A DNA stretch of 64,000 nt from Candidatus Gastranaerophilales bacterium (GCA_947625305.1 CANQNW010000007.1:36380-100379); one strand, 5' to 3'; positions 223 to 35,950 are shown, counted from the stretch's first letter. Notes: a model not told the origin generated them from the sequence alone. Numbers and translations are program-made.

Positions 223-1995
223 ATGAATAAAACAGTTTTAGCACAAATAAATACAATAGCCGGAGATATTACTTATAACAGTAAAATAATTATTGAGAGT
301 ATTAAAAAAGCAAAAGAACAAAATGCCGATTTAATAATATTCCCCGAACTTGCATTAATGGGATACCCGTTTGGCGATATATTTATAAGACATAAATCTA
401 TAATTAAAAGGCAGTTAAAAGCACTTGAAGAAATAACTTCTAAAACTGATGGTATTACAGCATTGGTTGGATTTGTCGAACCTACATATGATTCGGAGAA
501 AAAACCTTTTTATAATTCGGTTGCAGTTATGCAAAACGGTAAAATTATTAATATTGCAAGAAAAAGACTGCTCCCCAATTATTCAGAGTTTAACGATTAC
601 AGGTATTTTGAACCCTCAAAAGAAACACCGAAAATTTTTGAACTTAACGGGGAAAGATACGGAATACTTGTATGCGAGGACAGTTTTAATGATAAATCAT
701 TTTTTAAAGATAAATGTATTTATAAGACCGACCCTGTTGCGGAATTAATGGAACAAAAGCCTGATATATTAATAAATTGTTCATGTTCGCCCTCAAGATG
801 CGGTAAAGAGTATATTAAAAACGGATTATTTTCCTCCATTGCAAAAAAATACAAAGTAAATTACATATATGTAAATCAGGCAGGTTATGCGGATAATCTT
901 TGCTTTGACGGCACATCAAGAATATATAATACAAAGGGTGAATTAACATTAAGAGCCAAATCTTTTGAAGAAGATTTTGTAATAACCGATAACCTGCATG
1001 GAGAAATAAACTCACTGCCTGTAGGGGCGGATAAAAAATTTGAATTGGTTGATTTTAAATCGGATTATGAAAATGATTTAGATAGGACTTATAAAAGTAT
1101 AATTTTCGGAATTAGAGAATACTTTAAAAAGAACGGATTTAAGAAAGCCGTATTAGGGTTATCGGGCGGGCTGGATTCTTCTATATGCGCCGTACTACTT
1201 TCTGATGCACTCGGGAAGGAAAATGTCTGGGGTATATCTATGCCAAGCAGAATAACCTCTAATGAAAGCAAAAATGATGCAAAACTTTTAGCGGAAAACT
1301 TAGGCATTAACTTTTTTGAAATTCCTCTGGCTGATGCCATTGACCCTTTAAAAGCCATGTTAAATTTTGCTTTTACTAATATAGAAACCGAAAAGTTTGA
1401 AAAATCAACAACAATAGAAAATTTGCAGGCACGGTTAAGAGCAACTCTTTTATGGAGCATATCAAACGAGCATAAACAAATGCTCCCGATTGCTACAAGT
1501 GATAAATCAGAAGCTTATATAGGCTATGCCACGGTTAACGGGGATATGTCAGGAGGATTTGCCCCAATAGCCGATGTAACAAAAACAAAACTGTTTGCAC
1601 TCGGGCATTTTTTTAACAAAAACAGAATGCAAAAAAACGCAATTCCTCAGGCAATTTTAGAAAAGCCCCCCGGAGCGGAATTAAAAATTAATCCTAAAAC
1701 AGGCAAAACTGTTTGCGCCGAAGAAGAAAACATGCCTTATGAATTTTTGGATGAAATCATCTGGAATGTTGAAACTAAAGGCTTTGGTTTTGAGGAATTA
1801 ATGAAACATAAATTTTATTATGAAAAAAATAATACTCTTTCAACAGAACAAAAAACAGAGTGGATTAATAAATTTTATTGGAAATCAAAATGCGCAGTAT
1901 ACAAATGGCATATTATTCCGCCATCTGTTGTTGTTGATGTTAAATCAATTAATTCAGTAGAATACCGCCAGCCTATTATATCTAAGGTTAATTAA
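223..1995 (+). CDS. nadE: Glutamine-dependent NAD+ synthetase
   Basis: The internal ATG at 223 (MNKTVLAQINT) is a likelier start than 187. An N-terminal CN-hydrolase glutaminase domain (FPELALMGYP, RKRLLPNY, GILVCED) is fused to an NAD synthetase PP-loop domain (GLSGGLDSS). Confidence 0.93.
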   Translation: MNKTVLAQINTIAGDITYNSKIIIESIKKAKEQNADLIIFPELALMGYPFGDIFIRHKSIIKRQLKALEEITSKTDGITALVGFVEPTYDSEKKPFYNSVAVMQNGKIINIARKRLLPNYSEFNDYRYFEPSKETPKIFELNGERYGILVCEDSFNDKSFFKDKCIYKTDPVAELMEQKPDILINCSCSPSRCGKEYIKNGLFSSIAKKYKVNYIYVNQAGYADNLCFDGTSRIYNTKGELTLRAKSFEEDFVITDNLHGEINSLPVGADKKFELVDFKSDYENDLDRTYKSIIFGIREYFKKNGFKKAVLGLSGGLDSSICAVLLSDALGKENVWGISMPSRITSNESKNDAKLLAENLGINFFEIPLADAIDPLKAMLNFAFTNIETEKFEKSTTIENLQARLRATLLWSISNEHKQMLPIATSDKSEAYIGYATVNGDMSGGFAPIADVTKTKLFALGHFFNKNRMQKNAIPQAILEKPPGAELKINPKTGKTVCAEEENMPYEFLDEIIWNVETKGFGFEELMKHKFYYEKNNTLSTEQKTEWINKFYWKSKCAVYKWHIIPPSVVVDVKSINSVEYRQPIISKVN

Positions 1996-4685: not shown

Positions 4686-6077
4686 TTAAGTTTTATTAAC
4701 TTCTGTATTTTGAGAACAGTATATATCCTCAGTTCCATCTTCTTTAATAAATTTAAAACAATTATCATCAACTTTTTTATATTGTTTCTTTAAATATTTA
4801 TGACATTTTTCAAGATTTCCATTATTCTTTACAAAATCATCAAAAGAACTTACATAATATAAATTTTCATCAGTTAAAAGCAGAACATGACCTTTAAATA
4901 AATAGATTTGTTTAAATATAGGTTCTGCAATATATTTGTTCTTGTATATAATCCCATAATTTTTAACTTTCACTTTTATAAGTTCGTTATCAGTTATTTT
5001 TATAATATTACTTACCGACATAGCATTCATAATAATATTGCCTTGGAAATCAATTACACCAAGACCTCCGCCATTTTTTCCAAATTCTTTATATATTGCA
5101 TATTTATCACTTAAGGGTATAATCATTTGAAAACTTTTTTTACTAACCTTGTTACCTTTTTTATCGATAATATTTATCTCTCTTTGTTCTCTTCCGACTG
5201 CATAATAATCATCAGACAATTTAGTAACATCAGGCCCTATTTCTCCTGAAGTAATTATTCCCCCATTTTCATCTAAAATACTGCAATTTGTATAATTTTC
5301 ACAAGCTACAAAATAATGAGAATCATCATGAGCTGTTTTATATAATATTTTATAATATTTTTCAGGAATTATAATTTTATTTTTATTATTGATTATTCCT
5401 TGTTTTAAATCTTCACTCTCTATTATAAATAAATTATTATACAGTCCGGCAAGTTTTCTTTTCTTTAACGGAAGTATTTTTTCGCCTTTGTTATTAAATA
5501 TTCCGTATGAATCGTTCTTTTTTACTATATAATAATATCCGCCTGAGTATTCCTTATTTTCTTGAAATTTAATATCATCATAAATCGGTTTTAATACTTC
5601 TTTACCGTTATAAAAAACCATTCCGTATTTATCGTTCTTTTTTGTTAATATTCCGCCCCAAGATTCATAACCGCAGTTAAGTTCATCATATTTTTTCGTC
5701 TTATAAACTACATCCCCGTTATAATAAATAATTTCTTTATACTTACCTGTAACTGCATTAAAAAACAAACTGTACGGGAAACGGCAAGCTTTTATTTCTT
5801 TATATTTTTGAGGAATAATAAGTTTGCCTTTTACATTATCATAAACACCGATTAAACCTTTCTCGTTTTGAGGATAATCATAAGGATTATCACCTAATGC
5901 TCCAAAATACGGTGTGACATTATTTATATCCTTTAATTCCGGATATTTTTGTTTCATTTCCGCAGTATAAAACCTTGTATATTTATCATCTTCATATTTT
6001 GGTTTAATAAAGTATTTAAAAACAATAAACCCGATAATTAAAGATAATGATAAAAATAAAATGACGAATTTTTTCAA
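4686..6077 (-). CDS. Membrane-anchored WG-repeat (KWG-like beta-propeller repeat) protein
   Basis: N-terminal TM anchor (FVILFLSLSLIIGFIVF) followed by repeated units such as GLIGVYDNVKGKLIIPQKY, KYGMVFYNGKEVLKPIYD, SYGIFNNKGEKILP, QGIINNKNKIIIPEKY and LGVIDFQGNIIM. Confidence 0.6.
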   Translation of the reverse strand: MKKFVILFLSLSLIIGFIVFKYFIKPKYEDDKYTRFYTAEMKQKYPELKDINNVTPYFGALGDNPYDYPQNEKGLIGVYDNVKGKLIIPQKYKEIKACRFPYSLFFNAVTGKYKEIIYYNGDVVYKTKKYDELNCGYESWGGILTKKNDKYGMVFYNGKEVLKPIYDDIKFQENKEYSGGYYYIVKKNDSYGIFNNKGEKILPLKKRKLAGLYNNLFIIESEDLKQGIINNKNKIIIPEKYYKILYKTAHDDSHYFVACENYTNCSILDENGGIITSGEIGPDVTKLSDDYYAVGREQREINIIDKKGNKVSKKSFQMIIPLSDKYAIYKEFGKNGGGLGVIDFQGNIIMNAMSVSNIIKITDNELIKVKVKNYGIIYKNKYIAEPIFKQIYLFKGHVLLLTDENLYYVSSFDDFVKNNGNLEKCHKYLKKQYKKVDDNCFKFIKEDGTEDIYCSQNTEVNKT

Positions 6078-6135
6078 TAAACTACTCCCAAGTTCAAAAT
6101 AACCATATAATAATACAATAATTTGATGAAATGAG

Positions 6136-6168
6136 CAAAAAAGAACCGTTTCATTTGAAACGGTTCTT
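6136..6168 (-). terminator. Intrinsic terminator of gap
   Basis: On the minus strand, AGAACCGTTTC - loop - GAAACGGTTCT is followed by a T run, immediately downstream of the gap stop. Confidence 0.75.
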
Positions 6169-6189
6169 TAATCTGATTTATTCTGAAAA

Positions 6190-7227
<1,038 letters not shown>

Positions 7228-7323
7228 TTATTGTTCACGTGTATTTATAAATTAAACATAAAGTTTAATCAAGTAAATTTTTTTGTTATAATTCATCATG
7301 AAATCAGACAAAAACAGGTTATC

Positions 7324-7959
7324 ATGACAACTAAATTTTCAACAAAAACACCTAAAAGCTTTAATATATGGCGAAGAATGTTTCAATACATTGCCTGCAA
7401 TACGGTTATTATCAATATGATAAGGTCAAAATATAAAGTATTGAAAGCGGAAGGTATTGAAAATATTGACAAATCAAAAAAATATATTATTGCAAGCAAC
7501 CACGTAACAGGCTTTGACCCGTTCTTTATAGCAAATCAATATAAACTTACAATAGCATATATGGCTAAAAAACAATTATTTGAAACCTTTTGGTCGATGG
7601 TTTTAATGGATTGGTGCGGAGCTTTTGCCGTGGATAGAGATAAAGTCGACGTATCCACAATAAAAACAGCTCTATCCATAAAAAAAACAAATTGGCATTT
7701 GGGGTTATTTCCGCAAGGTACAAGAAGTAATACAGGAAAACTTGAAAATATAACTAAAGGATTTGCCTCCATAGCAAAAAAAATGGATATTGATATTCTG
7801 CCGATAGCAATTATAGTTAGAAATTCCGAAAACGGTAAACAAACAATGCAGTTAAAAGCAGGAAAACCTATTTCATGCAAAAAAAGTGTTGAAGAAATTG
7901 TTGACGAATGGGCAAATTCCGTATGTTCACTGGGCGGATTTGAATATGTTCAATCATAA
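7324..7959 (+). CDS. plsC: 1-acyl-sn-glycerol-3-phosphate acyltransferase family protein
   Basis: NHVTGFDP (HX4D block) and FPQGTRS block III. The start at the internal ATG 7324 (MTTKFST) is preferred over 7231. Confidence 0.8.
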   Translation: MTTKFSTKTPKSFNIWRRMFQYIACNTVIINMIRSKYKVLKAEGIENIDKSKKYIIASNHVTGFDPFFIANQYKLTIAYMAKKQLFETFWSMVLMDWCGAFAVDRDKVDVSTIKTALSIKKTNWHLGLFPQGTRSNTGKLENITKGFASIAKKMDIDILPIAIIVRNSENGKQTMQLKAGKPISCKKSVEEIVDEWANSVCSLGGFEYVQS

Positions 7960-7978
7960 ATAAAGAAAGAGTTTACGA

Positions 7979-8689
7979 ATGGGACAAAAAGAAGAAAAAA
8001 AGAAAAACTATACCAAAAGAGAAGTTTCTGATTTTACCGAAGGCAAGTACAAATTTCAGCTTTTTGGCAGGTGGCTTGTACCTAATACTCTTCTGCCTCT
8101 ATTCTATAAAATAGAATATATAGGTAGAGAAAATATTCCCTCTGACAGAAATTTTATTATTGCCCCTAATCACATTTCATATCTTGACCCGTTTGTAGTA
8201 GGGGAGGCGGTTAAAAAACCCATTGCTTTTATGGGCAAAAAAGAACTTTTTGAAAATAAAATTCTTGCTTTTTTATTGGATGGACTTGCCTGCTTTGCCG
8301 TAAACAGAGAAAAACTTGAAGTATCAACAATTAAAACCGCTTTAAACGTTTTTAAAACTAACCGCTGGATGCTCGGAATTTTCCCGCAGGGCGGTATCAG
8401 AAGAAACAGAAAAATTGAAAAAATTAATAAAGGTTTTGCGGTTATTGCAAAACAAATGAAAACCGATATCTTGCCTATCGGAATTACGGGCAGTGAAGAA
8501 TATAATTGGATTCCCTTTAAAGGCAAATTAAAAGTAGCTATAGGAAAGCCTATTTCCTTTAATCAGGAATATGATGAAATTATTGACGAATGGGGCAGAA
8601 AGGTTGCAGAGTTAATTAATTATGAATATATTAAGGATACTCAAGATTCATCGTCAAAAGAAACAAAAACTCCCGTTAATATATCATAG
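7979..8689 (+). CDS. plsC: 1-acyl-sn-glycerol-3-phosphate acyltransferase family protein (tandem paralog)
   Basis: NHISYLDP and FPQGGIRR blocks. It is collinear with the upstream paralog (shared strings such as AFAVDRDKVDVSTIKTAL / CFAVNREKLEVSTIKTAL). Confidence 0.8.
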   Translation: MGQKEEKKKNYTKREVSDFTEGKYKFQLFGRWLVPNTLLPLFYKIEYIGRENIPSDRNFIIAPNHISYLDPFVVGEAVKKPIAFMGKKELFENKILAFLLDGLACFAVNREKLEVSTIKTALNVFKTNRWMLGIFPQGGIRRNRKIEKINKGFAVIAKQMKTDILPIGITGSEEYNWIPFKGKLKVAIGKPISFNQEYDEIIDEWGRKVAELINYEYIKDTQDSSSKETKTPVNIS

Positions 8690-11600
8690 ATAATTTATTT
8701 ATAAACTCCTCTTTATTATAACTTGTTAGTTTATAATATAAGTTATATTTACATTCTCTTAATTTTTCATTTAACTCATATTCCGTAATATCTGATAAAA
8801 TAACCAGTTTAACATTGTAATAATTCTCATCACTTTTAAGATATCTTATAAGCCTTATTACTTCTTCCGAAACATCGGTTACACAGCAAATTATTATGTC
8901 GGTGTCATTTTTTTGAATGTAATCATATGTCGAATTAATATTATTAAATTCAATTATGTAATCAAAAGTATCCGTTAAATCATTTTTTATAAACGTTAAA
9001 TTATTATTTGCATCACTTAATATTAGTGCCTTTTTATCTTTTAAGTTTAGTTTTTTATCTTCAATCGAGATATTTTTTATTTCAAATAAAGAATTATAAT
9101 CAGCTAAGACGGTATTTCTTATTAATTCAAAAGGATTAATTATTAAACAAATTTCTCCCGAGGACAAGGTTGTAAACCCGCTGATATTTTTAATTTTTAA
9201 TATGGGCGGTACTAATTTTTTATTAAAAATTTCCTGATCCCCTATTAATTTATCAACAATATATGCAGCTTGTCTTTCTTGATTTTCAATTATAATAACG
9301 GTAAATAAATTATTTTCGGTATAAATATAATTTTCTTCGCCTAATATTTCGGAAAGGTAATAAATCGGAATACTATGCTCTTCAAATAATATAGAATTTA
9401 TACCGTTCTTTTTAAAAATATCATTTTTTGTTATTTGTTTTATATATTTTATTGCTCCTACGGGGATTGCATATTTTTGATTATTAACAAGTAAAATAAA
9501 GGTTTTAATTGTAGACATAGAAATAGGAAGTTTTATTGTAACCCTGCAGCCTTTATTTAATTCGGAATCAATAGATAATTCTCCGTTTAAATTAGCTATC
9601 TTTGTTTTAACAACATCAAGCCCGATACCTCTGCCTGATATTTCGCTTATTGAATCACGAGTAGAAAAACCGGGTAAGAATAATATTTTCATTAATTGTT
9701 CCTGAGGGATATTATCGGCTTCTTCTTGTGTTAGTATTCCTTTCTTTATTGCGGTTGATTTAATTTTTTCATAATTAATTCCGTAACCGTCATCTTCTAT
9801 TGTGATTATTACATTGTTTTCAGCTTGTTTTGCAGTTAGTTTTACAAGTCCTTCTTCTTTTTTATTATTTTTTATTCTTAATTCGGGTTCTTCAATTCCA
9901 TGTGAAACCGCATTCCTTAGAATATGAATTAACGGCATTTTTATTTCTTCAATTATTTTTTTATCTACCGTTGTATCACTTCCGTTTATTATAAAATTAA
10001 TTTTTTTATTATTTTCTTTTGCAATATCTCTCATCATTCTCGGAAATGAATGAAATATTGAGGCTAAAGGTAAAACTCTGATTGTCTTTGCAATTGTATC
10101 TATTTCCATAACGGTTTGATGGAGCTTATTATCATCTTCGGAAATAATATTATACAAATTATTAAAATCTATATTTATTCCCGTTATCATTTCTGATGTG
10201 TCCATAAAAAAGTTTTGGGTCTTTTTGTAAAAGACTTGTGTACTTTCATCAGAATCAGAAAGGAAAAATCCCCTTTTTTCAAGGTATTTTATGTAATTTA
10301 TTATTTTTTTACTTACATTACCCAGTTTGGATAATTTATTATATATCTGTGAAAGTCTTAATAGATGTTCCTGAGTTTTTATTCCGTTAATTAATAATTC
10401 ACCCGTTTGTCCTATTAAATTATCAACCTTGTCTGAATCCACTCTTAAGACCTTTATTTCCTCCATATCAAAAGATTTAATATTCTTTTTTAAATTATCA
10501 TATTCCCCTAAAGAAATTAAAGAATTATGCTCAATACTTTCAGCGGGGGTTCTTAATTCCGGCACCGTAGTATTAAACATATCTTCAACAAGGTTTAATC
10601 TCTCGGATAATGAATTAAGCTTAACCTCATTAAATTCTTTATGATTTGATATACATCTTCTTATATATATAATGCATTGAAGCATTACAAGATAACAATC
10701 ATTATCAACCTGAAAATTATTGTTGTTTATCATATTTAAAATATTTATTATTTTAGAAAATAAAGGCTCAAGCTTATTTTCGTTAACAAAAGAATGAATT
10801 TTTTCAAGATTATTTATAATTTCTTTTGAAATATCTTTTTCATTTTTTATTCTGTGAAGATTTGAAAAAATATACTCAAATTCTTTTTTTAGTCCTGTTT
10901 CTTGAACATTATCTATGTTTTTGTTTTTTTCTTCTTTTTTTTCAGTTGTTTTTAAATTATTTTGTTTATTGAGATTTGTAGTAATATTTAAATTTTTAAA
11001 CAAATTATAAATAAGATTTCTTAAATGCAGTATTTTTGATTTTAATTCTTCAAACTTGAAATTATCATTTAATTTTGCATATTCAATAATCGATTTTAAT
11101 TCATTTTTTATTTCGTCATAATTTGTATTATTAAATATTTCCTCTAACTTAGAAATATTATCATTAATAACGGGAACAACTTCTTCTAATGTATAATCAT
11201 TCTCGGTTTCGAGAACAAACATAAGTTCCAAAATAATAGCATTAATATCTTCCGTCTTAGGAATTAAAAGATTATCTTTAATATTATTTTCCTGCTTTTC
11301 GGGTATTATTCTGTTAAAAGTAATAAAATTATCAAGTTTGTTGATAAAAACGGTAATATCTTTATCGGCAATTTCAGATTTATTTACAACGGATTTATGA
11401 ATTAAATCAAGAAGAAAATCACAAACGTGATAGATTTCTTCAAACATATCACTGTTAATTTTAACGTCGTCTTGACCCCAAAAAGAAAGAATATCTTCTA
11501 ATTTATGAGCAATATTTTGAATATTGTTAAATCCAATCATTCTGGATGCACCTTTAAGTGAATGTGCAAGCTGAAATAACTTTTTTAAAGGGGTTTTATC

Positions 11601-15810: not shown

Positions 15811-16698
15811 TTATTTATTCATATCAACACAATAATCGATTAATTTGCCTTCTGTATTAAATTGATAATCTTTACTAAATCTATGTTCATACCTTGGATT
15901 TTGAACTATATTTTCCATAACAAATGACAAAGTATTACTGTTTGGGTCAAATCCATATCTTTTATCAATATTAACAAAACATCCGGGCCATCTATATGTA
16001 AAACTCTTATATTCAAAATTAATTCCTTCGGTAATATATTTAACATTATCGGGTTTATTTACATCCCAGCTGAAACTTCTGTCTGCGGATTTCTTTATTT
16101 TACTCTTTTTTACATTTTCACTAAGAGTATATAAAACTAAATCTTTTTTTGTTTTTCCGAGCGGGATACCATATTTATAAACTTTTTCAGCTTCATATCC
16201 ATCTTTAAAACTGCCTTTAAATCCTTTATATACTTTAAATCCGTTTTCACTATCCAAAATTATGTTTTTTTCACCGTTTACCGCTGTAACTTCTATAACG
16301 GATTCGGCATAGCCTTTTGAATTATTTTTAAATATTACATCTATTTGATTATTATTTTTATCAGTCCAAGAATATATTTGATGACTACCATCTTGTGTCA
16401 GTTCTATTTCTTCGGATTGATTTTTTATAACAGATTGACAATATTCATAAAATTCTTGTGTCTGCTTTAAAACATCATATCCTTCTTTTTTTAGTTTTAC
16501 GGCATCATTTTTAGCTGTTTTTGTACAGTACTTTTTTAACTCTTCCGCGCGATTTAAAACTTCTTTATCAAATTTCGGTTCTTCTAAATAAGATTTTTCC
16601 GTTTGGAATAAACCGTTAAAAGAAACATTCTTATTAGAACGCATTTTTAAAGATTGTATTGTTTGTTGATTAACACTGTTAATTGCAAAAATTTTCAT
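15811..16698 (-). CDS. Hypothetical protein carrying the MKI...SFNG N-terminal leader
   Basis: 295 aa with a GAGG RBS 6 nt upstream of the ATG and lineage-typical K/N/E/Y-rich composition. No signal peptide or TM. The N-terminus is MKIFAINSVNQQTIQSLKMRSNKNVSFNGLFQ. Confidence 0.55.
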   Translation of the reverse strand: MKIFAINSVNQQTIQSLKMRSNKNVSFNGLFQTEKSYLEEPKFDKEVLNRAEELKKYCTKTAKNDAVKLKKEGYDVLKQTQEFYEYCQSVIKNQSEEIELTQDGSHQIYSWTDKNNNQIDVIFKNNSKGYAESVIEVTAVNGEKNIILDSENGFKVYKGFKGSFKDGYEAEKVYKYGIPLGKTKKDLVLYTLSENVKKSKIKKSADRSFSWDVNKPDNVKYITEGINFEYKSFTYRWPGCFVNIDKRYGFDPNSNTLSFVMENIVQNPRYEHRFSKDYQFNTEGKLIDYCVDMNK

Positions 16699-29873: not shown

Positions 29874-30887
29874 GTGCTTTCTATAAAAACATATTCGGTT
29901 ATAAATAAAAGTATTCCGTTTTCATCAAAAAAAGCGGTTCCTTTTAAAGGTGAAGATGTAAGTGAATTATTACAGCAAGGCGATAAAGCACTTAACGAAA
30001 ACCGGCCGGATGAAGCTTTAAATTTATATATGCAGGCAAAACAAAAAAATCCTGATGATATAACAATATATAGAAAACTCGGTAAAGCCTTTTTAAATAT
30101 GAACAGTTATAAATCCGCCCAAGATAACTATAAAAAATATCTTGATAAAACTCCTGAAGATACTGATGCGTGGATAGATTACGGAGATGCATTAAGAAAA
30201 GACGGATTATATAAAAATTCAATAACCGCATACGAAAAAGCACTGGAGCTTGATAAGGGCAACGATTTAGCCAAAAGAAATATAATGGAGGCAAAAAACA
30301 GCCTGCTTGCAGTGTATTCACCCGAAAAAGCAAGACGGGAAAAAGATATGTATGCTTCAGAAAATTTAAAAAAAGCACTTCAAATAACCGTAGATTATCT
30401 TGGCAGTGAATATATGTCAAAAATAGCGGATGTAAACTTTTGTTTTGGTAAAACTGCCTCAATGGGCGGAACGGGTAATATAGCACAATATGAAAATTAT
30501 AAAAAAGGCATAACGGTATCTGATACTCATATTTATGCCGCTCCCGAGGTTATTGCTGCATACTTGGTGCATGAAAGTGTCCATGCTTCAGATAAAGATG
30601 CATATACATCAGTCAGAGAAGAACAAGATGCTTATAAAGCCGCCGCTAAATTTTGGATAAAAAATTCAAACGGAATTAAAGATCCCGAGATGGATTATGC
30701 CGCTTCATTATATAAAAAATCGCCCTCTGCATTAAGCGCAAGGGTAGAAGAAATATACAGGCTCAGAGATCCTCAAATTTCGGCAACTTCGCCAAATCAT
30801 CCGCCGAAAAAAAGTAAATCAACAGGCATGCTTTCAAAAAGAAAAGCGGCAAGCCAATCCATAAGACAGTATGATGTTATTGCATAA
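29874..30887 (+). CDS. TPR-repeat protein with C-terminal HExxH (putative zinc metallopeptidase-like) domain
   Basis: GTG start with a GAAAGG RBS. About three TPR units span residues 35-140. HExxH occurs in AAYLVHESVHASD, with downstream EEQDAY. The N-terminus is MLSIKTYSVINKSIPFSSKKAVPFKGEDV. Confidence 0.55.
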   Translation: MLSIKTYSVINKSIPFSSKKAVPFKGEDVSELLQQGDKALNENRPDEALNLYMQAKQKNPDDITIYRKLGKAFLNMNSYKSAQDNYKKYLDKTPEDTDAWIDYGDALRKDGLYKNSITAYEKALELDKGNDLAKRNIMEAKNSLLAVYSPEKARREKDMYASENLKKALQITVDYLGSEYMSKIADVNFCFGKTASMGGTGNIAQYENYKKGITVSDTHIYAAPEVIAAYLVHESVHASDKDAYTSVREEQDAYKAAAKFWIKNSNGIKDPEMDYAASLYKKSPSALSARVEEIYRLRDPQISATSPNHPPKKSKSTGMLSKRKAASQSIRQYDVIA

Positions 30888-32007
30888 ACGGATTTGTTTC
30901 GGGTGTTTGATTATTATTTAAAATAACCTGACCTTTAGTTGCTTCGGCTATATTTTCTGTTGCATATGCAACATATTTTCTGTATTTCTTTTTATTAACT
31001 CTTCTTGTCTTAATGAGCATATTACAGTAATCAAAAAAAGTTTGCAGATATTGAATTCTTTCGGGTTTTCTGCTTAACCAGTAGTTTGGGTTATAATTGC
31101 TTTTTTCGACATTGCAGGCTTCATGCATGGGAAGATAATTTCCGATATCATTTCTTTTGTTATTTTCACTGTAAGGGATGAAATGATCTGTATTTGAATA
31201 TGATAAAAGTCTTGTTGCAATTGTATAAGAATCCCAATCCTCGCCTTTTTTATTTTTACCCGAATACTTAACGAACCATGCAACTGCCATATCTGTAGAT
31301 GTTGGGAACTTTTTAGCTATTTTTTGCAACTTATCATACTTATGAGGATTTTTAATTTCAATCTGGCTGATTTCATCAAGCATTATTTTTCTTCTGAAAG
31401 GTGCCATTGTTTTCTTATTTTTAATAATTGATTTTAAAGAATCTATTTTGGATAATAAAACTTTCTTTTCATTTTCAGGCAATGTATAGGCTAAAGCTTT
31501 CATTTTGTTAATAAGTTTTAACTGAATTTCTTGTAAAACAGGAAGTTTTTCATCTCTTAACATAACAACCAGAGTTCTTATATCTTTAGCGCCTTCTATA
31601 TCCCCCAGTGATTCTGACAGATTGCATAATTCATGGTAAACCTGTTCTTCCACGGGCCGCATGTATTTTGTGTAATTACCGAGAAATTCTAAATATTCAT
31701 CGGAGGGAATTTTAGCAAGTTCTTTGCAGAATTTTTCATATTTTTTGGGAGAAATTAATAGTTTTCCGCAGGCAGGGCATGGAATATCAGAGATTTTTGA
31801 TAATATAAAATTGCCCGATCTTTCGGCAAGTTTTGGTATTGTAGTTTCAAAAGTTCTTTTTTGTCTTGATGTAAAGTTAACAGGATAATAAAAGACATTG
31901 CTAAGTTCTGCAGATTTAAAATTCCGCATTTGGCTAGCACTATTAGATTTTACACTTTTTCCTATTGTCCAATTATTATATTGGAAGGAAACAGGTTGTA
32001 TTTTCAT
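30877..32007 (-). CDS. Hypothetical protein with C-terminal HNH-like nuclease motif
   Basis: TDHFIPYS...NDIGNYLPMHEACNVEKS matches the D-H / N / H-x2-C-N-x2-K beta-beta-alpha-Me pattern. A CPACG zinc-knuckle-like motif lies near residue 77. The N-terminus is MKIQPVSFQYNN...MRNFKSAEL. Confidence 0.5.
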   Translation of the reverse strand: MKIQPVSFQYNNWTIGKSVKSNSASQMRNFKSAELSNVFYYPVNFTSRQKRTFETTIPKLAERSGNFILSKISDIPCPACGKLLISPKKYEKFCKELAKIPSDEYLEFLGNYTKYMRPVEEQVYHELCNLSESLGDIEGAKDIRTLVVMLRDEKLPVLQEIQLKLINKMKALAYTLPENEKKVLLSKIDSLKSIIKNKKTMAPFRRKIMLDEISQIEIKNPHKYDKLQKIAKKFPTSTDMAVAWFVKYSGKNKKGEDWDSYTIATRLLSYSNTDHFIPYSENNKRNDIGNYLPMHEACNVEKSNYNPNYWLSRKPERIQYLQTFFDYCNMLIKTRRVNKKKYRKYVAYATENIAEATKGQVILNNNQTPETNPFMQ

Positions 32008-32300
32008 ATTATTCTCATAATGTCTGATATAAATACAAAACTAAAAAAATTAAAATTTGTCGTTAAAGTTAAAAATTGTAAATTTGAATTTTTGAGTATA
32101 AAAATTTTACAATTTTAATAAAAAACCCTCTTTTTTTTAAAAAAAAGGGTTGTTTTAATAAAAATTGCATTGAAAATTTACAAAAATGTCAATTTTTTTA
32201 ATGCGCAAGTTCTTAAATTAAAAAATTAAAAAGCAAAAAAATTTGTTTTTAGTTATTAAATTGATATGATTGCAAATGGTGTAAAGGGCAATTATATAAA

Positions 32301-33962
32301 TTGAAAATAACCGGAATACAAAATAATAATACTTTAAATTTAAGAACACAAAAGAAAAATATAAATAAGGGGAATAATACTCAAAGCTTTAAAAGCGGAT
32401 TAGGCGAAGGAGTATTTAATCTTATTGATAAAGCATTTAGTGTTCTGGATAAGAATGCAATGATACAGGTATCATTTGTAGATACGGTTTCAACAAATAT
32501 CCCGAGAACCTTGGTAGATTTAAAAACAGGGCTTGCGGCTGCATTTGAAACATGCAGGAGAGAATTTTCAGGCTTATTTGTAAACTGCCTTATGCCGGGA
32601 CTTGTTGTAAAAGCCATTGCGGAAATACTCCCGAAAGGCGAAATTTTAAAAGATACAAAAGTTGTTTCATCTTGGGCAAACGGCAGTATTATTGATAAAC
32701 TTCAAAATGTATACACGGAAGCAAAAGCATCCGGCATGGAGGATGTAACAAAAGAATATGTAACAAGAGCTTTATCATCACTTGAAGGACTTGAGGGTAA
32801 AACTTGGGTTAAATATGCTGATAAAGCGCAGGCTCCTGAATTTAAGGAGGCTGTTGAAAACATTACAAAAGCAATTACATCAAAAGGCAAAGAAAAAAAA
32901 GTTTTACTTGAAAATGCCCGAAAAAAGCTGGTCGGACTTACTAAAGCTGAAAACATATTAAAATTTAACAATTCGGCTCAATCCAATTTAACCGAAACTC
33001 TTAGAGATATTACTGATTTAGGCTCTAAATTTAACATTGTCAGCGAAAAAGGTATTTCTATAGATAAATATTCTTCTGCCTTAAAGAACTTTGTTAACAA
33101 AAAGAGTTTAATCGGTTTAGCCCTTGTTATAGGAATAGCAGTAAGTGTTCAAACAATAAACAGGGCAATAACAAGAAAACAGTTTAAAGCGGCAGGCGCT
33201 CCTATTTATAAAGATTTTGGGAAAAAAGATACAACCCAAAAAATGGATGATAAAGAAAAGAAAAAGTTTAAAATAAAAAAACTGGTTTCAGCAGGCGGAA
33301 TGTATGGTTTAGCGGCATTATCAATGATGAAAAAGCCTACACTCGGCATGTTCCAGTTTTCAAATATATTCCCGACAATGGATCAATGCAGATGGATAGC
33401 CGCATCAACATTTGCAAGCCGAATGCTCGGGGCGGAAGATGAAAATGAATTAAGAGAAACAACCGTAAGAGATTTAGCATCATTCTCGGGCTTATATTTC
33501 TTGGGTGATTATGTGAAAAAAGGAGCAGCCTCTTTAATAGAAACATTCTCTAAAACTAAAAAAGGTGCAGATTTATTAGGCGGGGAAGTAGTTCTGTTAA
33601 ACAGAAGAAAAGAAATTGCAAAACCCATATTGGAAACAGGTGTTTCAGTCTCCAAAAAAATTACCTCGAATTTATCATACAGATTAAAACAAATAGGCAA
33701 TTGGATTAAAAATACAGACCTTAAAACTGCGGGAGAAGTTTCAAGTATAAAAGTAAGAAATTTAAGAAATATATGCAGAATAGCTGATATCGCATTTTCA
33801 ATTATTATGCTCGGAGTATTGCTTCCAAAATACAATCGTTCCGTTACCGAGAAAAAAGTAGCGGAGGCAAAAAAACGTGAAGAAATGCAAAGACAAATAA
33901 ATGCAAATTATTCCAATGCTTTCAAGAAAAATGCGCCTGCTGTTTTTAAAGAATTAATGTAA
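32301..33962 (+). CDS. Hypothetical membrane protein with MKI...SFKSG leader
   Basis: The TTG start is supported by N-terminal similarity to neighbours (MKITGIQNNNTLNLRTQKKNINKGNNTQSFKSG). At least 3 hydrophobic helices are present (LIGLALVIGIAVSV, GGMYGLAALSMM, IADIAFSIIMLGVLL). Confidence 0.5.
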   Translation: MKITGIQNNNTLNLRTQKKNINKGNNTQSFKSGLGEGVFNLIDKAFSVLDKNAMIQVSFVDTVSTNIPRTLVDLKTGLAAAFETCRREFSGLFVNCLMPGLVVKAIAEILPKGEILKDTKVVSSWANGSIIDKLQNVYTEAKASGMEDVTKEYVTRALSSLEGLEGKTWVKYADKAQAPEFKEAVENITKAITSKGKEKKVLLENARKKLVGLTKAENILKFNNSAQSNLTETLRDITDLGSKFNIVSEKGISIDKYSSALKNFVNKKSLIGLALVIGIAVSVQTINRAITRKQFKAAGAPIYKDFGKKDTTQKMDDKEKKKFKIKKLVSAGGMYGLAALSMMKKPTLGMFQFSNIFPTMDQCRWIAASTFASRMLGAEDENELRETTVRDLASFSGLYFLGDYVKKGAASLIETFSKTKKGADLLGGEVVLLNRRKEIAKPILETGVSVSKKITSNLSYRLKQIGNWIKNTDLKTAGEVSSIKVRNLRNICRIADIAFSIIMLGVLLPKYNRSVTEKKVAEAKKREEMQRQINANYSNAFKKNAPAVFKELM

Positions 33963-34069
33963 AATAGCAAAAAAAAATTTGTTTGAGTTTTAATTTATTG
34001 CAGGGTTGTTAAAACCCAAAAAATGTTATATAATATTCAAGCTTAAAATGAGAGTAAAGGAGAGAATAA

Positions 34070-34426
34070 GTGGTTGACAACAGGTCTGCCGGAGTTCTCG
34101 GAATTAGCGGGGGTATAAATTTCAAAAGCGGTGATATATCAGGTACCGCAGCCAAAACCTCCGACGACAGAGCAAGCCAAGGAACCGAATATTTCATGAT
34201 GGAAGGCGAAGAACAGGCCTCCAATCAGCAATATGAAGATAGAAGCATGCAATTAAGGGCTTCATTAAATTCTCTTGCACTTTTAAATGTTGTTTCGGTT
34301 TTAAGAAATAAACGCAAGCATTCTTTACTTGAAGAGGAAGACTTAAACGATAAAGTTAAGCCTGAAGATAATACAAAAGTCGAAAAAATTGAAGATAATA
34401 ATAAACAGGAAACCGATAATAATTAA
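34070..34426 (+). CDS. Small acidic hypothetical protein
   Basis: GTG start 8 nt after a strong AAGGAG RBS. 118 aa with an E/D-rich tail. The N-terminal GISGGINFKSGDISG carries the same NFKSG motif. Confidence 0.45.
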   Translation: MVDNRSAGVLGISGGINFKSGDISGTAAKTSDDRASQGTEYFMMEGEEQASNQQYEDRSMQLRASLNSLALLNVVSVLRNKRKHSLLEEEDLNDKVKPEDNTKVEKIEDNNKQETDNN

Positions 34427-34490: not shown

Positions 34491-35633
34491 ATGAATAGAA
34501 TTTTCGGATTAATCATAGCATTTATTTTATCGGTTTCGTGTGTATTTGCAATGGACTATGAAGATATACATCACGGGTTTTGGGCATATCAGGATATTGA
34601 AAATCTGACTGATAATGATTTAATTGTAGGTTATCCGAATCATAAATTTGAGCCTGAAAAATATGCAACAAGAGCTGAGTATGCGGTTTCAGTTATAAAA
34701 GTTTTAAACCAGCAAAATATTCCTATAGAAAAAATGTATTCTTTTGAAGATATAGATTCTTCTCATTGGGCTTGGAATTATATTTTAAGAGCAATAAATT
34801 TAGATATTATAAAACCCTCTGATGACGGGTACTTTTATCCTGATGAATTTTTAACAAGAAGTGAAATAATAACATTTCTTGTAAATATTCTTAAGTCGGA
34901 AGATATTACAAAACAAGATGCAATAAAAGCATTACAAAATGCTTATGATGATTTTGATGATATCCCTGATTGGTTTAAAATAACGGCAGGCAAGGCGGAA
35001 GTATTAAATGTAATAGCAAAAGAACCTCCCCGTGAACGGTATCTTGACTGTGATAAATATGTTACAAGAGCTCAGCTTGCAGTTTTTATGGCTAATTTAA
35101 AGCGAGCAACGGAGGGATATCAAGCTGAAAAAATAAAAGAAGAAAAATCTCCTAAAATATCCGAAGGAATTACAATAGAAAACGTTTTAAAAGACGGAGA
35201 TGTTGTTACACTGCCGACTTTAACAGTATTACCCGTTATGGTAATCGGTCAAATTAGTTCTGATAATTCTGTGCCCGGTGAAATGTTTCAGGCTAAATTC
35301 GCTAATAATATTGTTGATGACGAACATCATTTATTATTGTCTAAAGATATTGTTTTAATAGGTAAAGTTCTTGATACAACGGAGGGTAAATATTTTCTGC
35401 GAAACGGTGAATTAATATTTGAACTTTCTGCCGTTAATAATAAAAACTTTTTAACACGAATATTTGGTGTTGCAGAATGTGAAACGGAACTGATAGAAAC
35501 AAACAGGATAAAAAAAATAATAAAAACCGTAATTAAGGGACGAGATTTTAAAGTTAAAGACGGGCAGATTCTTTATGTAAAACTTTATAAACCAATAAAG
35601 GTTAATATAGTTACGGGCGAAGTTGTAAATTAA
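34491..35633 (+). CDS. SLH-domain protein (3 S-layer homology repeats plus C-terminal beta-rich domain)
   Basis: Signal peptide followed by three SLH units (FWAYQDIENL...ATRAEYAVSVIKVL; HWAWNYILRA...LTRSEIITFLVNIL; DWFKITAGKA...VTRAQLAVFMANL). Confidence 0.8.
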   Translation: MNRIFGLIIAFILSVSCVFAMDYEDIHHGFWAYQDIENLTDNDLIVGYPNHKFEPEKYATRAEYAVSVIKVLNQQNIPIEKMYSFEDIDSSHWAWNYILRAINLDIIKPSDDGYFYPDEFLTRSEIITFLVNILKSEDITKQDAIKALQNAYDDFDDIPDWFKITAGKAEVLNVIAKEPPRERYLDCDKYVTRAQLAVFMANLKRATEGYQAEKIKEEKSPKISEGITIENVLKDGDVVTLPTLTVLPVMVIGQISSDNSVPGEMFQAKFANNIVDDEHHLLLSKDIVLIGKVLDTTEGKYFLRNGELIFELSAVNNKNFLTRIFGVAECETELIETNRIKKIIKTVIKGRDFKVKDGQILYVKLYKPIKVNIVTGEVVN

Positions 35634-35950
35634 ACTTTCTTATAAACACCCATATCTTCAAGTGCTTTTAAAAAGCTTTGAGCGGTAGCTTTTTGCACAT
35701 CGGGCGGTACAACTCTTAAAAGTTCAACCGTTCTTGAAATAACAGGGTCTTTATCATACCAGCGATTGCAGACTTTTGGTCTTACCATTTCATAGAATTT
35801 GTCTATTGCCTCTTTAGAAACTTTTTTTTCAATTTCCGCTAAAAATATTTCTGCTTGAGATTTTAGTTCATTTTGATAATTTTGAAGTAAGTTTATTACT
35901 TCAAGCAAAACAGGGTCATGATCATACCATCTTTTATAATTGTGACTCAC
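35630..35950 (-). CDS. Small protein with internal tandem RWYDxDP repeat
   Basis: 106 aa. Residues 7-25 (RWYDHDPVLLEVINLLQNY) and 63-81 (RWYDKDPVISRTVELLRVV) are clear repeats. The start overlaps the murA end by 17 nt on the same strand. Confidence 0.6.
   Translation of the reverse strand: MSHNYKRWYDHDPVLLEVINLLQNYQNELKSQAEIFLAEIEKKVSKEAIDKFYEMVRPKVCNRWYDKDPVISRTVELLRVVPPDVQKATAQSFLKALEDMGVYKKV

Follow-up and report, generated by a model that had tools for sequence, protein, structure and literature searches.

The locus considered here raises the question of why several proteins without other similarity to one another should begin with much the same short polar segment. Gastranaerophilales are widespread uncultured gut relatives of cyanobacteria and belong to the non-photosynthetic Melainabacteria. 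In a stretch of 64,000 nucleotides (nt) from a Candidatus Gastranaerophilales bacterium (GCA_947625305.1, CANQNW010000007.1:36380-100379), referred to as the window, an earlier inspection (the original prediction) proposed that five hypothetical proteins, four of them encoded side by side between proS and murA, share an N-terminal leader that closes with the tetrapeptide [SNP]F[KN][GS] and could direct export, targeting or processing. The analysis described here indicates that this leader, termed the tag, is a genuine, lineage-wide, two-part and intrinsically disordered N-terminal segment, which is apparently undescribed, as no paper was found that describes it as a sorting signal or otherwise gives an account of it. 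Judged from sequence features, the tag may be a targeting or export signal for one common route, a reading to which a probability of roughly 40% is assigned. Statements at the genome scale are based on the window, 17 related genome loci, 36 metagenome loci and protein searches.

When the sequence was re-read, all five open reading frames (ORFs) and their quoted N-termini proved accurate. Each start is the first start codon downstream of an in-frame stop, and a clear Shine-Dalgarno-like purine run lies upstream of four of the five genes, with a weak one before the gene at 30877-32007. The unusual TTG start at 32301, for which the tag had been offered as support, is indeed supported by it, because the orthologues carry GTG, TTG or ATG at this codon of the alignment and are conserved from codon 2 onwards. 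The tag is translated, and in each family its two ends are under purifying selection while the linker between them drifts.

Across orthologues the tag opens with the start motif M-[KR]-[IV]-x-x-[IVA], continues with a linker that is basic, acid-poor, rich in Asn, Lys and Gln and free in length and sequence, and closes with the Phe motif [SNP]-F-x-[GS]. This architecture is displayed most extensively by the family of the 553-amino-acid (aa) membrane protein, which comprises more than 700 homologues: the start reads M-K-I-S-x-V-D-R-Y, residue 3 being Ile or Val in 97% and residue 6 Val, Ile or Ala in 73%; F30 never varies, and 91% of the sequences retain G32 (alignment A1). Its linker contains 22% Asn and 17% Lys, with 3.6-4% Asp plus Glu compared with 12.3% in the window proteins, and the Phe falls anywhere from residue 23 to residue 49 because linker length varies freely. 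Anchoring on the Phe succeeded for 119/120 sequences of this family and for 104/120 of the family of the HNH-like protein, in which M1 never varies and at least 90% of the sequences retain I3, Y40, F45 and R51 (alignment A2). The original choice of NFKS (residues 29-32) as the motif of the HNH-like protein has to be corrected, since that tetrapeptide is unconserved and the second motif is instead Y-Y-P-V-N-F-T-S (residues 40-47).

The remaining families follow the same plan with variations of their own. In the TPR family, M-[LI]-[STK]-[IVL]... and F-x-G-x-D are kept in 14/14 orthologous loci, and in the 295-aa family, which consists of four clusters in all, MK[IV]S[AT]IN...VSFNGLF is kept. Residues 1-45 of the 118-aa protein are nearly invariant in every orthologue, and this N-terminus is therefore a conserved segment that holds the motif and not a variable leader; its gene follows the 553-aa gene wherever the latter is at least 51% identical to that of the window. 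An additional small tagged family, present between the 118-aa gene and the gene of the SLH protein in 8 related loci and missing from the window, reads MK[IV]xP[IV]...SVNFGE, with a compressed form MKIAPVSFG.

Within the window, the tetrapeptide occurs at residues 10-50 in 5 of 56 proteins against 0.52 expected from the rate in the rest of the proteins, although the resulting P of ~2e-4 is inflated, the pattern having been fitted post hoc to the same five proteins. The adjacency of four of the five genes was confirmed: they form a contiguous run, which by simple counting arises in 2704 of the C(56,5) possible placements (~7e-4). Broader sampling came from a metagenome scan with the alignment of the 553-aa family, which yielded the 36 loci with homologues down to 35% identity; the tag was present in all full-length distant homologues listed (for example, ...N-P-N-F-K-G, ...Q-F-G-G and ...N-F-T-G). 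Homologues of the five families were then excluded, leaving 112 gene clusters from the metagenome loci as an independent set. In this set the strict tetrapeptide gave 3 N-terminal matches against 1.13 expected (P = 0.10), while a leader profile trained on the five families scored at least 4 bits in 4/112 N-termini against 0/260 internal control segments (P = 0.008) and at least 2 bits in 11/112 against 8/260 (P = 0.009). Enrichment of the motif, the check that had been suggested, was thus found at the N-termini of these 112 related clusters for the broader profile and not significantly for the strict tetrapeptide, and the fixed tetrapeptide is too narrow as a definition of the tag. By inspection, ~13/112 of the neighbouring clusters open with a tag.

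The families are also linked to one another directly, as leader profiles built from a single family recognise the N-termini of other tagged families with scores of 2-9 bits; the best non-self match of the 553-aa leader profile is the 295-aa protein, aligned to residues 6-29. In short leaders the Phe stands at residue 8 (small proteins of loci L001 and L009) or at residues 12-15 (proteins of L153 and L156). Because leaders of distant lineages often place the Phe at 12-15, the minimal tag is put at ~15 residues, with the Asn/Lys linker as an optional expansion; in this minimal form of ~12-15 residues it reads M-[KR]-[IV]-x-x-[IVA/T], a few polar residues and [PSN]-x-F-[KNG]-[GS]. A degenerate DNA pattern of the leader was also run against viral contigs, and among the at least 80 matches listed, 6 contained an in-frame MKI...F[KN]G frame, none of them tag-like.

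None of the classical N-terminal signals can be recognised in the tag. The statement that the five leaders lack a Sec or twin-arginine translocation (Tat) signal, a lipobox and a prepilin motif was upheld by hydropathy and by a pattern scan: the highest 12-residue Kyte-Doolittle mean within the first 45 residues is 0.3-1.3, compared with 2.6-3.1 for five true signal peptides of the same window, and scanning the first 35-50 residues of each protein revealed neither a twin-Arg motif nor a lipobox or prepilin pattern. A Sec signal peptide is ruled out by the absence of a hydrophobic core, whereas other window proteins use ordinary Sec signals, and the Tat and prepilin interpretations are rejected on motif grounds. 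Nor was an exchange of the tag for a Sec signal, a finding that would have spoken for export, seen in homologues of the C-terminal domain of the TPR-HExxH protein from outside the order, which carry no Sec signals; the N-termini of these homologues are likewise long and disordered, with much Pro, Ala and Ser where the sequence looks G+C-rich. The leaders of double-glycine exporters, which are ATP-binding cassette (ABC) transporters with a C39 peptidase, resemble the tag in being N-terminal and non-hydrophobic, and the 553-aa family does read F-K-G-[GAS]. However, the cargo of the tag measures 100-1500 residues (118-553 in the window families) instead of being small peptides, hydrophobic residues are lacking at -7, -12 and -15, and the Gly-Gly/Ala/Ser pair, confined to the 553-aa family, is absent from the HNH-like, TPR and 295-aa families, so this candidate was ruled out as well.

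Structure prediction locates the tag outside the folded part of the proteins. In AlphaFold2 (AF2) models based on deep alignments, the HNH-like protein reached a mean predicted local distance difference test score (pLDDT) of 83.9 and the 553-aa protein one of 70.8, and pLDDT stayed below 50 at residues 1-46 and 1-35, respectively, so that both leaders tested are modelled as disordered. The bodies are modelled well, and the Phe motif thus marks the junction of a disordered tail and a folded body. These two bodies returned no significant fold or PDB profile match, and PADLOC gave no matches. The 553-aa protein, with three to four hydrophobic segments, has no match in Pfam, NCBIfam or PDB. For the HNH-like protein, the Pfam HNH score of 21.1 bits lies just below the cut-off of 21.4, four PHROG HNH families match (best E = 1.8e-5), and D274, H275, N290, H295, C298 and N299 are invariant in the family; its best fold match, a Cas9 HNH domain, is not significant (E = 0.24).

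The C-terminal domain of the TPR protein (window 30291-30884) is distinguished by HExxH-x2-D-x-D...[TS]S...EEQD-x-Y and always stands behind TPR repeats. Clustered at 50% identity, its family counts 74 representatives, with Vampirovibrio and Vampirovibrionales proteins among them, and HExxH-x2-D-x-D...EEQD-x-Y recurs in most representatives whose printed N-terminal stretch reaches the block. A visible hydrophobic N-terminal signal sequence was found in 0/74 representatives, and the domain has no peptidase match in Pfam or NCBIfam; the impression is of a zincin-like family, so far undescribed, that is confined to Melainabacteria. A role of the TPR protein as a class II type III chaperone (LcrH/SycD) was also considered, and its TIGR02552 score of 19.4 bits, where the cut-off is 104.8, reflects no more than general TPR similarity.

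In distant lineages the tag is carried by a GH77 4-alpha-glucanotransferase, a metallophosphatase, a uridine-kinase-like protein and a 1553-aa HD protein, among others. The C-terminal domain of a tagged 272-aa protein (L156 2215-3033; also L160 2006-2824) matches the AvrB/XopAH type III effector family, with 54.9 bits for Pfam PF05394 (AvrB_AvrC), E = 2.9e-17 for NCBIfam NF041403 and E = 0.005 for AvrB in PDB. The occurrence of such a domain in a gut member of the cyanobacterial phylum is unexpected.

The combination of a free N-terminus bearing hydrophobic residues, an acid-poor stretch, an aromatic motif, disorder, unrelated cargo and no hydrophobic core is what would be expected of a signal read in the cytoplasm. 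In the favoured reading, a common cytoplasmic receptor would recognise the free N-terminus together with the Phe motif and would route the tagged proteins into one export or targeting pathway. By analogy, the likeliest reader would be the core of a flagellar-type type III export apparatus (FlhB, FlhA, FliI and partners), which takes up about half of the probability given to the reading as a whole; what favours it is the FlgD-like pair of signals, the reported retention of flhB and fliI in the order, and a FliS-FliT pair close to a 553-family gene in one lineage. In Salmonella, FlgD is exported by means of two signals, 2-SIAV-5 and the gate-recognition motif 36-FLTLL-40, which docks on FlhB-C, and it needs at least 19-24 residues between them (PMC8983047). 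The tag resembles such early flagellar signals in its small hydrophobic residues at the extreme N-terminus (positions 3 and 6), its disordered polar spacer and its Phe-centred motif, and neither a chaperone nor a cleavage is implied. It differs from them in its Phe motif, [SNP]-F-x-[GS] in place of F-x-x-x-hydrophobic, in a spacing that goes down to 2-8 residues, and in marking dozens of cargo families that are not flagellar, polytopic membrane proteins among them.

According to a preprint, ~25% of Gastranaerophilales genomes have a full flagellar gene set and the rest keep flhB, fliI and flgG, which its authors suspect of serving secretion (bioRxiv 10.64898/2026.04.24.720558). The FliS-FliT pair lies ~9 kb from a 553-family gene in one abundant lineage (L177 10001-10844, identical to L157 20333-21176), which must be very common because the exact FliS protein recurs in 7818 assembly-collection blocks; neither FliD nor flagellin adjoins this pair. 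The AvrB/XopAH-like domain also favours the reading, being otherwise annotated only in type III effectors.

Several observations weigh against this assignment. Sigma-28 promoters are absent upstream of the tagged genes, flagellar genes are absent from the window and, by ORF inspection, from the surroundings of the cluster in the 17 genome loci, and no rod, hook or FlhB signatures emerged from a six-frame regular-expression search that covered the window together with the related loci from genomes and metagenomes, though not the 80 loci of the viral scan. A Phe at residue 8 or 12-15 breaks the minimum spacing of FlgD; F-x-x-x-hydrophobic is present in only about half of the 553-aa family (+4 Ile, Phe or Val in ~53%), and the +4 position is Asp in the TPR protein and Gln in the HNH-like protein of the window. 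To our knowledge, real type III signals have no sequence consensus, whereas the tag has one. Finally, part of the cargo is normally cytoplasmic (GH77, uridine-kinase-like) or is a polytopic membrane protein, and on this account docking in the cytoplasm fits as well as injection does.

An extended form of the export reading, which is regarded as unlikely, would make the tag a previously unrecognised, sequence-defined class of N-terminal translocation signal that marks all substrates of a type III device of flagellar descent, used for export or injection. The HNH-like, zincin-like, kinase-like, HD and AvrB/XopAH-like tagged proteins would then be effectors, and the 553-aa membrane family, which forms tandem pairs in some lineages and has a TPR protein adjacent, would play a translocator-like role. 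The signals of injectisome effectors likewise occupy the first 15-25 residues, are disordered, rich in Ser, Thr, Asn and Ile and poor in acids, and precede unrelated enzymatic cargo; the lack of a consensus sets them apart from the tag, and no injectisome genes turned up in the examined sequences. A short common tag with a poorly conserved linker that brings diverse enzymes to one structure is also known from the cargo of microcompartments, encapsulins and contractile systems of the Photorhabdus virulence cassette (PVC) or extracellular contractile injection system (eCIS) type. However, microcompartment tags are amphipathic helices and encapsulin tags are mostly C-terminal, and no shell, encapsulin or contractile-system genes were noticed among the annotated window genes or the ORFs of related loci, where no dedicated search for them was made.

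Among the rival explanations, a tentative possibility is that the tag mediates docking or membrane association without export, in which case a basic disordered tail with hydrophobic and aromatic anchors would tether the proteins to a hub, for which the 553-aa membrane protein family and the TPR protein are the candidates, or to the anionic inner membrane. Such a function would agree with the normally cytoplasmic enzymes among the cargo (GH77, uridine-kinase-like, HD), with polytopic membrane cargo that keeps the tag cytoplasmic in an N-in topology, and with the way in which tagged genes, both in the window and in distant lineages, group about the 553-family gene. The charge distribution of the 553-aa protein points the same way, as its leader contains 6 Lys/Arg and 0 Asp/Glu and its loop 291-326 and C-tail are rich in Lys and Arg. 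TPR domains bind short peptides, and a TPR protein is encoded in the cluster; yet signals read from the N-terminus are more likely than internal docking motifs to have a conserved free N-terminus (M-K-I). Quite unlikely, in turn, is a propeptide or processing site cut at or near the F-x-G junction, in the manner of Prp and ribosomal protein L27, with the clustered TPR-HExxH protein as the candidate peptidase. The position of the Phe motif, 2-4 residues (553-aa protein) or 9 residues (HNH-like protein) before the first modelled secondary structure, where confidence rises, would suit cleavage, as would the conservation of the HExxH...EEQD block across Melainabacteria including Vampirovibrionales and the synteny of its gene with four tagged genes. 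On the other hand, the HExxH domain matches no peptidase family, the candidate peptidase is itself tagged, loci L011 and L013 retain tags without the TPR gene, the scan of viral contigs produced chance matches only among its at least 80 listed loci, and a cleavage site alone would leave the conserved extreme N-terminus unexplained. The Prp-cleaved extensions of L27 and of the capsid and scaffold proteins of phage 80-alpha in Firmicutes are comparable short N-terminal extensions that end in an aromatic-centred motif, but they have 9 residues, a Cys protease cleaves them between Phe-Phe and Ala, and very few substrates are known to carry them; no Prp gene was noticed in the window, where no search aimed at Prp was made.

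A degron for regulated turnover by an AAA+ protease is very improbable. The leaders, disordered in the AF2 models, would offer the exposed N-terminus that it requires, and the Met-basic-hydrophobic start recalls the N-terminal ClpX recognition motifs of Escherichia coli; a conserved second motif and a tag on stable-looking core membrane proteins would nevertheless be unexpected, and no adaptor or protease is linked to the tag. The least credible and disfavoured explanation is that the tag has no common function and is a chance product of a proteome rich in Lys, Asn, Ser and Phe combined with A-rich start regions. The low G+C content, the lack of a significant excess of the strict tetrapeptide in the independent set and the low cross-family profile scores are in its favour. 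Against it stand an invariant Phe and a conserved start beside a freely drifting linker in at least five families, the persistence of the tag at 35% body identity, its enrichment at N-termini relative to the rest of the same proteins, the physical clustering of the tagged genes, and the confinement of MKI starts in the window to tagged proteins.

The importance of the tag lies in the fact that most lineage-specific proteins of Gastranaerophilales are unannotated, so that a tag common to a sizeable part of these orphans would provide a first way into them. The tag defines a set of proteins open to testing and predicts a common receptor, and it may show the role of the flagellar export remnant that the order keeps without motility. 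Should it be an export signal with a consensus, it would be one of the few instances where sequence alone suffices to list type III-like substrates; should it be a docking or processing tag instead, it would still point to an undescribed cellular system. The coordinates of the tagged genes, their leaders and an associated A/T element are collected in Table 1.

Table 1. Tagged proteins of the window with their leaders and bodies, and the repeated A/T element near two of the genes (positions in nt of the window unless residues are stated)
Feature	Position	Strand	Description
337-aa TPR protein	29874..30887	+	GTG start; leader residues 1-27 (nt 29874-29954), MLSI... then V-P-F24-K-G
337-aa protein, body			TPR repeats at ~residues 30-135 (Pfam), C-terminal HExxH...EEQD domain
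376-aa HNH-like protein	30877..32007	-	Leader residues 1-47 (nt 31867-32007), MKIQPV... then Y40-Y-P-V-N-F45-T-S
376-aa protein, body			CPACG zinc-ribbon-like motif, then C-terminal HNH-like nuclease motif
553-aa membrane protein	32301..33962	+	TTG start; leader residues 1-33 (nt 32301-32399)
553-aa protein, leader			MKITGI..., Asn/Lys-rich linker, then S-F30-K-S-G
553-aa protein, hydrophobic segments	near residues 89-111, 263-291, 488-512		From hydropathy
118-aa protein	34070..34426	+	GTG start, strong Shine-Dalgarno sequence; residues 1-45 = nt 34070-34204
118-aa protein, motif			G-I-N-F18-K-S-G-D-I-S, inside residues 1-45
295-aa orphan protein, outside the cluster	15811..16698	-	Leader residues 1-30 (nt 16609-16698), MKIFAIN... 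V-S-F27-N-G-L
Semi-palindromic A/T element GCAAAAAAATTTGTTT	32233..32248	+	Upstream of the 553-aa gene
Second copy of GCAAAAAAATTTGTTT	33969-33984		Before the 118-aa gene

The A/T element is kept at both positions in orthologous loci, and its two close copies are the only ones in the window. From its placement it could possibly serve the 553-aa and 118-aa genes as a common promoter or operator; as a regulon-wide motif it was rejected, being found only before these two genes. The TPR-HExxH and HNH-like genes have convergent 3' ends that overlap by 11 nt (30877-30887), and the same arrangement is seen in orthologous loci.

The window has a G+C content of ~30%, and in protein searches its homologues are named 'Candidatus Gastranaerophilales' and 'Ca. 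Avigastranaerophilus'. The block from proS to murA is a conserved syntenic cluster, with the gene order proS, TPR-HExxH, HNH-like, 553, 118, SLH protein, small RWYD protein and murA in 15/17 genome loci, and for this reason the designation as an accessory island cannot be sustained. The two exceptions, L011 and L013, have other genes in place of the TPR gene, and two of the replacements have tag-like N-termini. The tagged proteins diverge faster than their housekeeping neighbours, at a rate comparable to that of the SLH protein and PilD: the three large tagged proteins share 52-67% identity with their window orthologues and the 118-aa protein shares 75%, compared with 86-95% for ProS, MurA and RecA, 68% for the SLH protein and 58% for PilD. 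The notion that the 553-aa family is unusually conserved was dropped, given its 67% identity. Walking outward gained ~10 genes beyond the window edges, and no further clear tag was met among them.

Some further features of these loci deserve mention. Members of the 553-aa family that are ~35% identical occur as tandem paralogue pairs in which both members are tagged (L152 5904-9220, L156 9962-13292 and L153 4626-6558), and shorter relatives of 307-339 residues exist. The small duplicated RWYDxDP protein beside murA (window 35630-35950 and orthologues) is ~95% identical across loci, a conservation that equals that of RecA and exceeds that of MurA. Locus L149 contains, at 5090-8739, at least 6 paralogous small Cys-rich ORFs, each starting with LQLCD-x-WESSKYGAAQC. 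Approximately 8 kb to the left of the window edge, L140 11342-14750 encodes a serine recombinase, behind which lie several small genes and one for a DUF5131 protein, and this segment looks like an integrated element.

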